From the IMG/VR virus record IMGVR_UViG_2541047689_000001: DNA of 4,434 bases. One strand, written 5' to 3'. A program made the translations under genes and the position numbers. The stretch's first letter is position 1; each line of letters begins with the position of its first letter. The notes under the pieces are model-generated. The model was not told where the DNA came from. It saw only the letters and a program-made list of their open reading frames with translations, and did not search any database. The DNA comes from a virus. Taxonomy: Duplodnaviria; Heunggongvirae; Uroviricota; Caudoviricetes. Below, piece after piece: positions 711 to 4,434 of the stretch.

Positions 711-1408
711 TGCAGGATATCCGGCAGGAAACACTGAATGAATGCACCCGTGCGGAGCAGTCGGCCAGCGTGGTGCTCTGGGAAATCGACCTGACAGAGG
801 TCGGTGGAGAACGTTATTTTTTCTGTAATGAGCAGAACGAAAAAGGTGAGCCGGTCACCTGGCAGGGGCGACAGTATCAGCCGTATCCCATTCAGGGGAG
901 CGGTTTTGAACTGAATGGCAAAGGCACCAGTACGCGCCCCACGCTGACGGTTTCTAACCTGTACGGTATGGTCACCGGGATGGCGGAAGATCTGCAGAGT
1001 CTGGTCGGCGGAACGGTGGTCCGGCGTAAGGTTTACGCCCGTTTTCTGGATGCGGTGAACTTCGTCAACGGAAACAGTGACGCCGATCCGGAGCAGGAGG
1101 TAATCAGCCGCTGGCGCATCGAGCAGTGCAGCGAACTGAGCGCGGTGAGTGCCTCCTTTGTACTGTCCACGCCGACGGAAACGGATGGCGCTGTTTTTCC
1201 GGGACGTATCATGCTGGCCAACACCTGCACCTGGACCTATCGCGGTGACGAGTGCGGTTATAGCGGTCCGGCTGTCGCGGATGAATATGACCAGCCGACG
1301 TCCGATATCACGAAGGATAAATGCAGCAAATGCCTGAGCGGCTGTAAGTTTCGCAATAACGTCGGCAACTTTGGCGGCTTCCTTTCCATTAACAAACTTT
1401 CGCAGTAA
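710..1408 (+). CDS. L: Tail tip protein L (232 aa), with a C-terminal cysteine cluster
   Basis: Complete ORF with ATG at 710 (overlapping the M stop, TGATG) and TAA at 1406-1408. The translation (MQDIRQETLNECTRAEQSASVVLWEIDLTEVGGERYFF ...) is recognised as lambda gpL. An AGGTGG Shine-Dalgarno-like sequence sits at 697-702. The C-terminal 60 residues carry cysteines at C173, C182, C205, C208 and C212. Confidence 0.93.
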   Translation: MQDIRQETLNECTRAEQSASVVLWEIDLTEVGGERYFFCNEQNEKGEPVTWQGRQYQPYPIQGSGFELNGKGTSTRPTLTVSNLYGMVTGMAEDLQSLVGGTVVRRKVYARFLDAVNFVNGNSDADPEQEVISRWRIEQCSELSAVSASFVLSTPTETDGAVFPGRIMLANTCTWTYRGDECGYSGPAVADEYDQPTSDITKDKCSKCLSGCKFRNNVGNFGGFLSINKLSQ

Positions 1409-1412
1409 TCCC

Positions 1413-2156
1413 ATGACACAGACAGAATCAGCGATTCTGGCGCACGCCCGGCGATGTGCGCCAGCGGAGTCGTGCGGCTTCGTGGTGAGAACGCCGGAGG
1501 GGGAAAGATATTTTCCCGGCGTGAATATTTCCGGTGAGCCGGAGGCGTATTTCCGTATGTCGCCGGAGGACTGGCTGCGGGCAGAGATGCAGGGTGAGAT
1601 TGTGGCGCTGGTCCACAGCCACCCCGGTGGTCTGCCCTGGCTGAGTGAGGCCGACCGGCGGCTGCAGGTGCAGAGTGATTTGCCGTGGTGGCTGGTCTGC
1701 CGGGGTGAGATTCATAAGTTCCGCTGTGTGCCGCATCTTACCGGGCGGCGCTTTGAGCACGGGGTGACGGACTGTTACACGCTGTTCCGGGATGCTTATC
1801 ATCTGGCGGGGATTGAGATGCCGGATTTTCATCGCGGGGATGACTGGTGGCGTCACGGTCAGAATCTCTATCTGGATAATCTGGAGGCCACAGGGCTGTA
1901 TCAGGTGCCGTTGTCAGCGGCGCAGCCGGGCGATGTGCTGCTGTGCTGTTTTGGTTCATCGGTGCCGAATCATGCCGCCATTTACTGCGGCGACGGCGAG
2001 CTGCTGCACCATATTCCTGAACAACTGAGCAAACGAGAGAGGTATACCGACAAATGGCAGCGACGCACACACTCCCTCTGGCGTCACCGGGCATGGCACG
2101 CATCTGCCTTTACGGGGATTTACAACGATTTGGCCGCCGCATCGACCTTCGTGTGA
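1413..2156 (+). CDS. K: Tail assembly protein K (247 aa from ATG 1413), with JAB/MPN metalloprotease and NlpC/P60 cysteine peptidase motifs
   Basis: The frame is open from the TTG at 1371 (the track start) to the TGA at 2154-2156. The first ATG is at 1413, 5 nt after the L stop. A canonical JAMM motif H68-x-H70-x7-S78-x2-D81 (VHSHPGGLPWLSEAD, nt 1614-1655) is seen directly, with an upstream Glu at E20. An NlpC/P60-like Cys (VTDCY, C121) and His (NHAAIY, H187) follow. The start is uncertain: an internal ATG at 1557 (M49) is preceded by GGAGG at 1541-1545. Confidence 0.85.
   Translation: MTQTESAILAHARRCAPAESCGFVVRTPEGERYFPGVNISGEPEAYFRMSPEDWLRAEMQGEIVALVHSHPGGLPWLSEADRRLQVQSDLPWWLVCRGEIHKFRCVPHLTGRRFEHGVTDCYTLFRDAYHLAGIEMPDFHRGDDWWRHGQNLYLDNLEATGLYQVPLSAAQPGDVLLCCFGSSVPNHAAIYCGDGELLHHIPEQLSKRERYTDKWQRRTHSLWRHRAWHASAFTGIYNDLAAASTFV
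1541..1545 (+). promoter_or_regulatory. Internal Shine-Dalgarno-like GGAGG, 11 nt upstream of the in-frame ATG 1557 inside K
   Basis: GGAGG is seen at 1541-1545. It could drive internal initiation of a shorter K form, or it could simply be the Gly-Gly-encoding sequence it lies in. Confidence 0.3.
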
Positions 2157-2695
2157 AAACGGGGGCTGAAGCCATCCGGGCGCTGGCCACACAGCTCCCG
2201 GCGTTTCGTCAGAAACTGAGCGACGGCTGGTATCAGGTACGGATTGCCGGGCGTGATACAGGTGAAACGGAATTATCAGCCCGTCTTAATGAACCGCTGG
2301 CAAATGGTGCTGTGATCCATATCGTGCCGCGTCTGGCAGGAGCCAAAAGTGGCGGTGTGTTTCAGGCTGTGCTGGGGGCGGCTGTTATGGCGGTTGCTAT
2401 ATGGATGCCGGGGGTAGGAATTATGGCGAGTAATCTGCTGTTTTCTCTCGGTGCCAGTATGACGCTTGGCGGTGTTGCACAGATGCTGGCCCCTAAACCC
2501 AGAACCCCCCGCACACAGACAACGGATAACGGCAAACAGAACACCTATTTTTCTTCACTGGATAATATGGTTGCCCAGGGCAATGTTCTGCCCGTTCTGT
2601 ACGGTGAAATGCGCGTGGGATCACGTGTGGTATCTCAGGAGATCAGCACAGCAGATGAAGGTGATGGTGGTCAGGTTGTGGTGATTGGTCGCTGA
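2054..2695 (+). CDS. I: Tail assembly protein I (213 aa): N-terminal ubiquitin-like region ending in Gly-Gly, a hydrophobic middle segment and a C-terminal domain
   Basis: Complete ORF with ATG at 2054 and TGA at 2693-2695. The translation (MAATHTLPLASPGMARICLYGDLQRFGRRIDLRVKTGAEAIRALA ... ; C-terminus NGKQNTYFSSLDNMVAQGNVLPVLYGEMRVGSRVVSQEISTADEGDGGQVVVIGR) is recognised as lambda gpI-like. It starts inside the 3' end of K in a different frame, with a 103-nt overlap. An AGAGG Shine-Dalgarno-like sequence sits at 2038-2042. Confidence 0.9.
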   Translation: MAATHTLPLASPGMARICLYGDLQRFGRRIDLRVKTGAEAIRALATQLPAFRQKLSDGWYQVRIAGRDTGETELSARLNEPLANGAVIHIVPRLAGAKSGGVFQAVLGAAVMAVAIWMPGVGIMASNLLFSLGASMTLGGVAQMLAPKPRTPRTQTTDNGKQNTYFSSLDNMVAQGNVLPVLYGEMRVGSRVVSQEISTADEGDGGQVVVIGR

Positions 2696-2755: not shown

Positions 2756-4434
2756 ATGGGTAAAGGCAGCAGTAAGGGGCATACCCCGCGCGAAGCGAAG
2801 GACAACCTGAAGTCCACGCAGATGCTGAGCGTGATAGACGCCATCAGTGAAGGGCCGGTTGAAGGTCCGGTGGATGGATTAAAAAGCGTGCTGCTGAACA
2901 GTACGCCAGTGCTGGACAGTGAGGGGAATACCAATATCTCCGGTGTCACGGTGGTTTTCCGGGCAGGTGAGCAGGAGCAGACACCGCCGGAGGGATTTGA
3001 ATCCTCCGGCTCCGAGACGGTGCTGGGTACGGAAGTGAAGTACGACACGCCGATTACCCGGACCATCACGTCTGCAAACATCGACCGTCTGCGCTTTACC
3101 TTCGGTGTACAGGCACTGGTGGAAACCACCTCAAAGGGGGACCGGAATCCGTCGGAAGTCCGCCTGCTGGTTCAGATACAGCGTAACGGTGGCTGGGTGA
3201 CGGAAAAAGACATCACCATTAAGGGCAAAACCACCTCGCAGTATCTGGCCTCGGTGGTGGTGGATAACCTGCCGCCGCGCCCGTTTAATATCCGGATGCG
3301 CAGGATGACGCCGGACAGCACCACAGACCAGCTGCAGAACAAAACGCTCTGGTCGTCATACACCGAAATCATCGATGTGAAACAGTGCTACCCGAACACG
3401 GCACTGGTCGGCGTGCAGGTGGACTCGGAACAGTTCGGCAGTCAGCAGGTGAGCCGTAATTATCATCTTCGCGGGCGCATTCTGCAGGTGCCGTCGAACT
3501 ATAACCCGCAGACGCGGCAATACAGCGGTATCTGGGACGGAACGTTTAAGCCGGCATACAGCAACAACATGGCCTGGTGTCTGTGGGATATGCTGACCCA
3601 TCCGCGCTACGGCATGGGGAAACGTCTTGGTGCGGCGGATGTGGATAAATGGGCGCTGTATGTCATCGGCCAGTACTGCGACCAGTCGGTGCCGGACGGC
3701 TTTGGCGGCACGGAGCCGCGCATCACCTGTAATGCCTGGCTGACCACGCAGCGTAAGGCGTGGGATGTGCTCAGTGATTTCTGCTCGGCGATGCGCTGTA
3801 TGCCGGTATGGAACGGGCAGACGCTGACGTTCGTGCAGGACCGACCATCAGATAAGGTGTGGACCTATAACCGCAGTAATGTGGTGATGCCGGATGATGG
3901 CGCGCCGTTCCGCTACAGCTTCAGCGCCCTGAAGGACCGCCATAATGCCGTTGAGGTGAACTGGATTGACCCGGATAACGGCTGGGAGACGGCGACAGAG
4001 CTCGTGGAGGATACGCAGGCCATTGCCCGTTACGGCCGTAACGTCACGAAGATGGATGCCTTTGGCTGTACCAGCCGGGGGCAGGCACACCGCGCCGGGC
4101 TGTGGCTGATTAAAACGGAGCTGCTGGAAACGCAGACCGTGGACTTCAGCGTGGGTGCTGAAGGGCTTCGCCATGTACCGGGGGATGTCATTGAAATCTG
4201 CGATGATGACTATGCCGGTATCAGCACCGGTGGTCGTGTGCTGGCGGTGAACAGCCAGACCCGGACGCTGACGCTCGACCGTGAAATCACGCTGCCATCC
4301 TCCGGTACCACGCTGATAAGCCTGGTTGACGGAAGTGGTAATCCGGTCAGCGTGGAGGTTCAGTCCGTCACCGACGGACTTAAGGTGAAAGTGAATCGGG
4401 TTCCTGACGGCGTTGCAGAATACAGTGTGTGGGG
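2756..4434 (+). CDS. J: Tail tip / central tail fibre host-specificity protein J, N-terminal ~559 codons; 3' end lies beyond the window
   Basis: ATG at 2756 and the frame stays open to the window edge (last full codon ends at 4432). The translation (MGKGSSKGHTPREAKDNLKSTQMLSVIDAISEGPVEGPVDGLKSVLLNSTPVLDSEGNTNISGVTVVFRAGEQEQTPPEGFESSG ...) is recognised as the lambda gpJ N-terminal region. It is missing from the ORF track because it has no stop in the window. Confidence 0.93.
   Translation, partial: MGKGSSKGHTPREAKDNLKSTQMLSVIDAISEGPVEGPVDGLKSVLLNSTPVLDSEGNTNISGVTVVFRAGEQEQTPPEGFESSGSETVLGTEVKYDTPITRTITSANIDRLRFTFGVQALVETTSKGDRNPSEVRLLVQIQRNGGWVTEKDITIKGKTTSQYLASVVVDNLPPRPFNIRMRRMTPDSTTDQLQNKTLWSSYTEIIDVKQCYPNTALVGVQVDSEQFGSQQVSRNYHLRGRILQVPSNYNPQTRQYSGIWDGTFKPAYSNNMAWCLWDMLTHPRYGMGKRLGAADVDKWALYVIGQYCDQSVPDGFGGTEPRITCNAWLTTQRKAWDVLSDFCSAMRCMPVWNGQTLTFVQDRPSDKVWTYNRSNVVMPDDGAPFRYSFSALKDRHNAVEVNWIDPDNGWETATELVEDTQAIARYGRNVTKMDAFGCTSRGQAHRAGLWLIKTELLETQTVDFSVGAEGLRHVPGDVIEICDDDYAGISTGGRVLAVNSQTRTLTLDREITLPSSGTTLISLVDGSGNPVSVEVQSVTDGLKVKVNRVPDGVAEYSVW

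Follow-up and report, generated by a model that had tools for sequence, protein, structure and literature searches.

A ubiquitin-like domain at the head of a lambda-type tail plug precursor, and the neighbouring JAB-domain protein K as its predicted processing peptidase

Introduction

Why does a phage tail-tip module carry a gene for a deubiquitinase-type peptidase directly ahead of a gene whose product begins with a ubiquitin-like fold, and at which bond would the first protein cut the second? The question is raised by genes K and I in a stretch of 4,434 nucleotides from a virus of the Caudoviricetes (hereafter the window). The K-I system is already known. Iyer, Burroughs and Aravind predicted in 2006 that I loses its ubiquitin-like domain to the JAB domain of K, which would cut at the C-terminal-most glycine of the released domain (PMC1779556), a structural frame followed in 2023-2025, and an experimental report came in 2025, when the conference summary of a talk by A. 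Davidson described gpI as cleaved by the gpK 'deubiquitinating domain' after joining the tip complex (PMC12908700). The window adds another allele. Our analysis concerns the domains of this allele, the tail of its ubiquitin-like domain and the explanations that compete for the pairing.

Results

The window comes from a lambda-type phage and covers its tail-tip module, H'-M-L-K-I-J', with about 96-97% DNA identity to lambda and mEp332, and all features described here lie on the plus strand. Genes M (nt 381-710; Pfam Phage_min_tail, 1.2e-39) and L (nt 710-1408; Phage_tail_L, 2.9e-101) precede K (nt 1413-2156), a tail tip assembly peptidase of 247 amino acids from the ATG at 1413, assigned from its reading frame, its Pfam matches and the K annotation in mEp332 and lambda. 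Gene I (nt 2054-2695; 213 amino acids) was identified by phmmer and Pfam as a homologue of lambda gpI, which is named a tail tip assembly, tail hub internal or plug protein. The 5' part of J (nt 2756-4434), encoding the central tail fibre or tip attachment protein, was recognized from Pfam FNIII-A_GpJ and Phage-tail_3 and from the annotation of matching phages. The hairpin between I and J has a stable fold, yet a consensus terminator scan of nt 2000-2800 was negative. The initial annotation had a JAB-domain K adjoining and overlapping I, and this is correct: the two genes share 103 nt in different frames (nt 2054-2156), or 64 nt if I starts at the ATG at 2093. In distant homologues the overlap is just 4 nt, and the start corresponds to Met14.

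By its sequence, the product of gene I belongs to the lambda-type gpI, or Lambda_tail_I (TAPI), family. It matches PDB chain 8iyk_I over residues 1-213 (phmmer, 3e-109), residues 14-97 score 86.7 bits against PF06805 (Pfam cut-off 23.8), residues 126-212 match the modelled gpI fragment in 9e7m (2e-47), and chain 25vf_9, a 'putative phage tail assembly protein', is matched at 4.9e-24. Its position between K and J in the order M-L-K-I-J is repeated in the distant loci L005 and L006. Lambda gpI (PDB 8IYK, 8IYL, 8K35, 8XCG, 9E7M) is a full-length homologue with the same plug domain in the same place between K and J. Residues 1-67 are identical in the two proteins and the ...AGAKSGGVFQ junction is shared, whereas substitutions fall in residues 68-93, with the ubiquitin-like domain diverging over residues 68-85, H1, the first hydrophobic helix, differs, and the loop between H1 and the second helix, H2, is 10 residues shorter in the present protein (213 amino acids against 223 in lambda). 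On these comparisons, I is an allelic or mosaic variant of lambda gpI that is found also in many E. coli prophages. P0165, a protein of 2783 residues, gave 23 matches to residues 10-57 of I, but it is the translation of a tandem repeat, similar by chance, and was rejected as a relative.

The N-terminus of I has a beta-grasp fold of the ThiS/MoaD type, as found in a structure model and by structural comparison, and the ubiquitin-like domain occupies residues 14-95 (nt 2093-2338). Its closest folds are MoaD, SAMP1, CysO and Urm1. At the level of profiles the similarity is marginal: alignments to the MoaD family are weak (E 0.14-1.2), and an hhalign comparison with ubiquitin itself gave a probability of 2%, which is not significant. 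A full-length AlphaFold2 model built on a 35-sequence alignment has a mean pLDDT of 48, with unreliable hydrophobic and C-terminal parts; a Foldseek search with this model matched ubiquitin-like proteins, and the solved C-terminal structures of gpI were not among its matches. In the model of the N-domain, order stops near residue 95 and disorder begins at 96. The ubiquitin-like nature of the N-terminus, as first annotated, thus held up, but the proposal that the domain ends in Gly-Gly was not supported as stated, because the fold stops before that dipeptide and the tail shared by the family is P92-x3-G96-[A/S]97.

Protein K combines two peptidase domains. The first, a JAB/JAMM metallopeptidase domain, covers residues 3-105 (nt 1419-1727; Prok-JAB, PF14464, 1.3e-13) and has a weak PDB relative in 2kks. 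A motif search located Glu19 (nt 1467-1469), with ESCG starting at that residue, and the series H68-S-H70-x7-S78-x2-D81 (nt 1614-1655), whose letters from residue 68 are HSHPGGLPWLSEAD; judged from these residues, the JAMM active-site motif is intact and complete. The second, a papain-like NlpC/P60 domain, covers residues 111-224 (nt 1743-2084; PF00877, NLPC_P60, 1.7e-12) and offers Cys121 (nt 1773-1775) and His187 as candidate catalytic residues, in DC and NHAAIY motifs. The gene pairing is conserved, and the genes upstream of distant I homologues (30-45% identity) also encode JAB plus NlpC/P60.

Downstream of the ubiquitin-like domain, I residues 102-146 (nt 2357-2491) form the stretch VFQAVLGAAVMAVAIWMPGVGIMASNLLFSLGASMTLGGVAQMLA, with no charged residue and with Gly or Ala at 15 of 45 positions, followed by a polar C-terminal part, just as first annotated. 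In full, the uncharged run extends over 49 residues, and of 20,000 shuffles of the protein only 5 matched this length; the 19-residue Kyte-Doolittle mean in I peaks at 2.04. Two helices are distinguished in the stretch: H1, residues 102-117 (nt 2357-2404; mean Kyte-Doolittle 2.12), modelled as a helix over 103-115 in the low-confidence full-length model and carrying an invariant Gly108 (61/61), and H2, residues 122-146 (nt 2417-2491), with conserved G133 and G139-G140-V-A-Q-M-L. Because Hessa-type insertion free energies are positive for the helices (+0.8 to +6.6 kcal/mol; sums of +1.1 for H1, +1.9 for the best 19-mer and +6.6 for H2), membrane insertion of this variant is not clearly predicted. 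The polar remainder, residues 147-213 (nt 2492-2692), corresponds to the plug or beta-augmentation domain that is retained in the virion, as indicated by the 9e7m match and the plug described for lambda (PMC10721106; PMC11101478).

For lambda gpI, TMHMM predicts transmembrane helices and H1 and H2 have been described (PMC11101478). [quoted passage not shown] Published work therefore agrees with the earlier suggestion that the segment is a membrane-inserting or buried assembly element.

The bond that K would cut was proposed in the initial annotation to follow Gly101. Residues 91-101 do read VPRLAGAKSGG, and GGCGGT at nt 2351-2356, within the reading frame at nt 2054-2695, does encode Gly100-Gly101. 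Since I contains three Gly-Gly pairs against 2.9 expected from its composition, the dipeptide alone is within chance, and its meaning could come only from its position. Conservation across 89 diverse I homologues favours the residues just before it. The tail P92-R-L-A-G96-A97 (nt 2327-2344) has Pro92 in 89/89 and Gly96 in 88/89 sequences, with Ala, Ser or Gly at residue 97 in 64, 23 and 2 of them, and would by homology be the equivalent of the C-terminal Gly-Gly of MoaD and ThiS: in a weak profile alignment (E 0.14-0.22), P92-x3-G96-[A/S]97 falls on the ...FPPVAGG terminus of the MoaD-family structures 1v8c and 2g1e. The following K98-S-G100-G101 (nt 2345-2356) is a polar spacer of varying length and a putative alternative cleavage site. 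Its glycines are moderately conserved (Gly100 in 53/89, Gly101 in 75/89), any Gly-Gly occurs in the spacer of only 45/89 homologues, and those without one still directly follow a K gene encoding JAB plus NlpC/P60.

The cut may therefore follow Ala97, not Gly101, because the conserved tail aligns with the MoaD Gly-Gly and Gly100-Gly101 lies four residues further on, in the variable spacer. We favour G96-A97 as the candidate P2-P1 pair, at about even chances, while the bond after G100-G101 is a possible but distinctly less probable site, kept in play by the fair conservation of Gly101. In our literature search, neither a full paper nor a preprint with a gpK/gpI cleavage site came up. Thus, of the original proposal, cleavage of I by K is backed by prediction (PMC1779556) and, in the conference summary, by report (PMC12908700), but its placement after Gly101 is weakened by the conservation of G96-[A/S]97. 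Should the cut follow Gly96-Ala97, mature I would begin with KSGG, which would form a short, polar cap to the first hydrophobic helix. That the conserved tail is Gly-Ala/Ser at 96-97, and not Gly-Gly, matters for the design of cleavage-site mutants.

Discussion

Our analysis very probably describes a plug precursor, with a ubiquitin-fold N-domain, hydrophobic helices and a plug, from which the N-domain is cut off by the JAB domain of K during tip assembly. The precursor would have three parts, namely the ThiS/MoaD-like domain (about residues 14-95 plus a flexible tail), the Gly/Ala-rich hydrophobic helices (102-146) and the plug (147-213), and would join the J-L initiator complex as the tail tip is assembled. 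The K JAB domain, a JAMM zinc metallopeptidase, would then read the ubiquitin-like domain as a deubiquitinase reads ubiquitin and cut the chain where the flexible tail of that domain ends, after which both K and the ubiquitin-like domain would be excluded from the virion. The remaining fragment would form a trimer in the tip lumen, where its plug would close the tube and its hydrophobic helices would hold the tape measure protein by the C-terminal coiled coil. On receptor binding, the plug would open and the hydrophobic helices would be released towards the outer membrane. The ubiquitin-like domain may serve in this scheme as a module that keeps the very hydrophobic segment soluble, or acts as a steric checkpoint on it, and that can then be removed.

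The fold, the domain order, the JAMM motif and the K-I gene pairing come from our analysis; the literature supplies cleavage by K, the absence of both K and the N-domain from virions, and the placement of H2 and the plug in the lumen. In lambda tails studied by cryo-EM, gpI is visible only as residues 134/135-223 and gpK is absent from virions (PMC10721106; PMC12617516; PMC11101478); a statement relayed in PMC11101478 has gpI resolved 'from position 101 onward'. A virion mass-spectrometry table in PLoS Biology lists one gpI peptide, with 9.9% coverage. In F-type pyocins, PA0640 / PyoF9 (plug or THIP) is paired with the K homologue PA0639 and is seen in particles as residues 127/128-200 alone; it has two predicted hydrophobic helices (residues 94-142). 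Its N-domain is kept in stalled tips and lost in mature particles, and deletion of PA0639 yields tip-less tubes (bioRxiv 10.64898/2026.02.24.707460). The F-type pyocin differs in being a tailocin, not a phage, at about 30-40% identity, and the protease is given there as unknown.

Which peptidase acts on I has more than one answer. The NlpC/P60 domain of K, a papain-like cysteine peptidase, could make the cut in place of JAB, or both could act, one on I and the other on a different substrate, for example H, the tape measure protein. With Cys121 and His187 present, the domain is apparently intact, Iyer et al. raised this option and noted phages whose K has NlpC/P60 only (PMC1779556), and gpH cleavage is still unexplained (PMC12617516). 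We nevertheless regard it as unlikely. The conference summary credits the 'deubiquitinating domain' of gpK with the cut (PMC12908700), the pairing of JAB with ubiquitin-like domains is a conserved association across bacteria (PMC1779556), and a JAB match stands beside NlpC/P60 in all four distant loci with a readable upstream gene, in one of them, where the gene is cut, just under the Pfam cut-off.

Removal of the N-domain independently of K is also conceivable, because PA0640 expressed alone in E. coli loses this region to unknown host proteases (bioRxiv 10.64898/2026.02.24.707460). Host proteases might then trim I in the phage as well, or an unstable appendage might simply be degraded, with K needed in tip assembly for some other reason. 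A conserved and well-folded beta-grasp domain, a near-invariant P-x3-G-[A/S] tail and a JAB gene that is always adjacent point instead to specific recognition, and Davidson's talk, as summarized, reports cleavage by gpK (PMC12908700), so that we give this explanation very little credence.

Just as slight is the chance that the K JAB domain is mainly an anti-defence deubiquitinase that strips Bil-type conjugates from J, with the ubiquitin-like domain of I not its principal substrate. The authors of the Bil study did speculate that the DUB domains which siphophages carry in tail assembly proteins work against conjugation by Bil at the central tail fibre (bioRxiv 10.1101/2023.09.04.556158), but tails cannot be assembled without K even in hosts that lack Bil (PMC12617516), and the obvious substrate is the ubiquitin-like domain encoded in cis, whose tail is conserved. 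An anti-Bil role is compatible, as a second activity of K, with the removal of the N-domain of I by JAB. A combined reading, improbable though somewhat less so than any of these rivals, would place the scissile bond after Gly96-Ala97 and also give the deubiquitinase-type domain of K, the released ubiquitin-like domain or both a second role against host Bil-type conjugation defences, which target J: K would clear J of host modifiers, or the free domain would act as a decoy for host E1/E2. Finally, the idea that the domain, once released, is activated at its C-terminal glycine as a conjugatable or sulphur-carrier modifier of the ThiS, MoaD or SAMP type is hardly credible and was rejected: its nearest folds are of this kind and Iyer et al. 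mentioned possible thiolation-like interactions (PMC1779556), but no E1-like reading frame or Pfam match was found in the window or in the tail modules of loci L005 and L006, most members have Gly-Ala or Gly-Ser at the homologous terminal positions, and the domain is reported as discarded.

We therefore return to I as a precursor processed by the K JAB domain and compare it with known systems. Ubiquitin-ribosomal protein fusions are processed by deubiquitinases, and JAMM enzymes include Rpn11, HvJAMM1 and QbsD. Such ubiquitin-fusion precursors resemble I in having a ubiquitin fold ahead of a cargo, removed by a dedicated peptidase that reads fold and tail; unlike theirs, the cargo of I is a hydrophobic virion plug, and its cleavage is reportedly gated by tail-tip assembly. 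ThiS, MoaD, SAMP and Urm1 are free proteins with a C-terminal Gly-Gly, whereas the domain of I is the N-terminal part of a structural precursor, with a different tail and without an E1 partner. From the system of Iyer et al., with its ThiS/MoaD-like domain, conserved C-terminal glycine, Gly-rich linker, TAPI-C domain and neighbouring K with JAB plus NlpC/P60 (PMC1779556), the present one does not differ in substance. The trimeric plug domain of T5 pb3 sits in the same lumenal position and has a hydrophobic segment for which contact with the outer membrane has been proposed (PMC10721106), but it lies within one large hub protein, without a ubiquitin-like pro-domain and without a K-type peptidase.

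In summary, the K-I pair would be a clear case, from bacterial viruses, in which a JAMM enzyme of the deubiquitinase type recognizes a ubiquitin-fold domain and takes it off, a step used as a checkpoint in the assembly of a hydrophobic tail plug. As such, it bears on how siphophages and F-pyocins build their tail tips, and on how ubiquitin processing arose in prokaryotes.

Results

The 4,434-nt window is 96-97% identical in DNA to Escherichia phages mEp332 and lambda, as well as to many relatives, and the gene names H, M, L, K, I and J come from the records of these matching phages; this identity, together with the annotation, makes the gene I under study that of a lambda-type phage or prophage. 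ORF calling placed the 3' end of H, the tape measure gene, at the start of the window, followed, all on the plus strand, by M (381-710; Pfam Phage_min_tail), L (710-1408; Phage_tail_L), K (1413-2156; Prok-JAB and NLPC_P60), I (2054-2695; Lambda_tail_I; 213 aa) and the 5' part of J (from 2756; FNIII-A_GpJ and Phage-tail_3). The C-terminal part of L (window 1225-1360) contains a cysteine cluster (CTWTYRGDECGYSG ... CSKCLSGC) that corresponds to the 4Fe-4S site seen in gpL of lambda by cryo-EM (PMC10721106). Between I and J, a GC-rich hairpin at 2713-2735 (GAAACCGCC-UCCG-GGCGGUUUU) is followed by a U-rich tract; the region 2700-2750 folds at -20.9 kcal/mol (z = -4.1 versus shuffles), and a simple terminator scan made no call there. 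The hairpin may act as an attenuator or stabilise the mRNA.

As initially annotated, K is a JAB-domain protein whose gene overlaps I; the two share 103 nt, read in different frames. Read from ATG 1413, four bases past the L stop, the K ORF encodes 247 aa, with Pfam matches to Prok-JAB (residues 3-105) and NlpC/P60 (residues 111-224; Cys121 and His187 present) and a complete JAMM signature (Glu19 in ESCG, then H68-S-H70-PGGLPWL-S78-EA-D81). Distant K homologues have 236-238 aa and likewise abut L. The annotated start, at the 5' end of K (window 1413-1559), differs by record, lying at about residue 15 in mEp332 and at the equivalent of Met49 (ATG 1557; 199 aa) in lambda imm21. Because Prok-JAB begins at residue 3 and includes Glu19, the 199-aa annotation would lose part of the catalytic domain. 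Four singleton database proteins of 335-376 aa (P0003, P0004, P0052 and P0285) combine NlpC/P60 and Lambda_tail_I as K-I fusions across the overlap and are probably frameshift errors or prophage pseudogenes; natural I-K and I-J fusions are on record (Iyer et al., PMC1779556).

Nearly all distant I homologues start at the equivalent of Met14 (ATG 2093 versus 2054), and in close relatives I is often annotated at NCBI as 200 aa. The 13 additional N-terminal residues (MAATHTLPLASPG) are limited to enterobacterial lambda-like phages and lie entirely within the K overlap. A Shine-Dalgarno-like GAGAGAGG is found 11 nt upstream of ATG 2054, and no such stretch precedes ATG 2093.

The proposed ubiquitin-like N-terminus of I was borne out by modelling. 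AlphaFold2 gave a poor model of full-length I (mean pLDDT 48) and a better one of residues 1-107 alone, built on 89 diverse homologues (mean pLDDT 73; core 80-87), with strands at 15-19, 29-32, 59-64 and 86-93, helices at 37-47, 49-57 and 71-79, and confidence below 50 from residue 96 on. When the N-domain profile was compared with PDB sequences, MoaD-family proteins appeared below the gpI relatives as weak matches (E 0.14-1.2). The E. coli homologue P0046 (247 aa) carries an exact 37-residue internal duplication (GRRIDLRV...WYQVR) within this domain; it would disrupt the beta-grasp and probably reflects either an assembly artefact or a defective allele in a prophage.

Residues 91-101 of I read VPRLAGAKSGG, and Gly100-Gly101 is encoded at nt 2351-2356. 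The initial annotation took this pair as the end of the ubiquitin-like domain and as a possible cleavage site; it is probably not the motif that the family conserves. Gly-Gly is in itself unremarkable in I, since it occurs three times against 2.9 expected from composition. In an alignment of the 89 homologues (30-95% identity), Pro92 is invariant (89/89), Gly96 is present in 88/89 and residue 97 is Ala in 64, Ser in 23 and Gly in 2, whereas Gly100 is found in 53/89 and Gly101 in 75/89. From residue 97 to the first hydrophobic helix, the spacer varies in length and sequence, and in only 45/89 is there a Gly-Gly no more than five residues from the conserved P-x3-G-[A/S] motif. The weak MoaD alignments set P92-R-L-A-G96-A97 opposite the ...PPVAGG of the MoaD C-terminus, in accord with a model whose last strand runs to residue 93 and whose order is lost from 96. 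The neighbours of five homologues without a spacer Gly-Gly were looked up, and four (P0377, P0379, P0381 and P0383) lie directly 3' of a gene that matches both NlpC/P60 and JAB; in the case of P0379, the contig ends within that gene, and at 23.7 bits the JAB match is slightly short of the Pfam cut-off of 25. From this conservation, alignment, modelling and gene neighbourhood, we concluded that G96-A97 (nt 2339-2344) would be the family-wide equivalent of the terminal Gly-Gly of ubiquitin and MoaD, and that Gly100-Gly101 appears to be part of a lineage-typical spacer. The fifth homologue, P0439 (PF06805; locus L007, 3001-3549), has no recognisable K, L or J in its locus; its neighbours are small genes without a Pfam match, a resolvase and a Cas9 gene, and the locus could be a tail module that has decayed or diverged strongly.

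The segment that follows, residues 102-146 (nt 2357-2491), has the Gly/Ala-rich and hydrophobic character noted initially: no charged residue, Gly or Ala at 15/45 positions and a clearly hydrophobic Kyte-Doolittle profile. It belongs to an uncharged run of 49 residues, equalled in only 5/20,000 shuffles of the protein. Gly108, Gly133 and Gly139-Gly140 are conserved in the family. [quoted passage not shown]

Discussion

Either a membrane-inserting or a buried role had been suggested for the hydrophobic segment, and the buried one fits lambda virion structures. In the lambda tail tip, the plug and a hydrophobic helix resolved at lambda residues 137-152 lie in the lumen, where they surround the tape measure protein's C-terminal coiled coil (PMC10721106); burial in the lumen is the known state of these helices in virions. 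Membrane insertion is still a proposal: summed Hessa-type insertion energies range from slightly to clearly positive, and the helices appear closer to Gly/Ala-rich helices of a packing or pore type than to classical membrane anchors.

Iyer et al. (PMC1779556) described in 2006 a ubiquitin-like domain of I with a conserved C-terminal glycine, a Gly-rich linker and a C-terminal domain, flanked by a K with JAB and NlpC/P60 domains, and predicted that JAB frees the ubiquitin-like domain at that glycine. A 2025 conference report (PMC12908700) summarizes the work of A. Davidson's group, in which gpK reportedly cuts gpI after gpI enters the tip complex. In lambda virions, cryo-EM modelled gpI for 134/135-223 only, and gpK was not detected (PMC10721106; PMC12617516). 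In an F-type pyocin, the N-domain of the I homologue PA0640 is kept in stalled tips and missing from mature particles, and deletion of the K homologue yields tubes without tips (bioRxiv 10.64898/2026.02.24.707460). Very probably, then, I is a precursor whose ubiquitin-like domain is cut off by the JAB domain of K while the C-terminal plug stays. The ubiquitin-fold domain would hold the hydrophobic helices soluble or sterically bar early docking, and the precursor would be incorporated into the J-L initiator before JAB severs it where the ubiquitin-like tail ends. The released domain and K would depart, and the C-terminal fragment would remain as a trimeric plug gripping the tape measure C-terminus.

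Cleavage by the second peptidase domain of K, NlpC/P60, is less well supported than cleavage by JAB, as is removal of the N-domain by host proteases. A primarily anti-Bil role of the deubiquitinase domain of K has been speculated on (bioRxiv 10.1101/2023.09.04.556158) and is likewise less well supported, and the same holds for a conjugation or sulphur-carrier role of the ubiquitin-like domain.

The sources consulted give no experimental gpK/gpI site. We give a scissile bond after Ala97 roughly even odds; one after Gly101 is possible but doubtful, and one elsewhere rather unlikely. Ge and Wang (PMC11101478) state that gpI in closed lambda tails is resolved 'from position 101 onward'; if this is literal, it too would put the cut before Gly101.

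The features described initially are all found at the positions given for them, and the core of the initial reading, that K would process I, was right; as it had already been published, it is not new. What changes is the place of Gly-Gly, which is probably not a conserved recognition or cleavage motif in this family.
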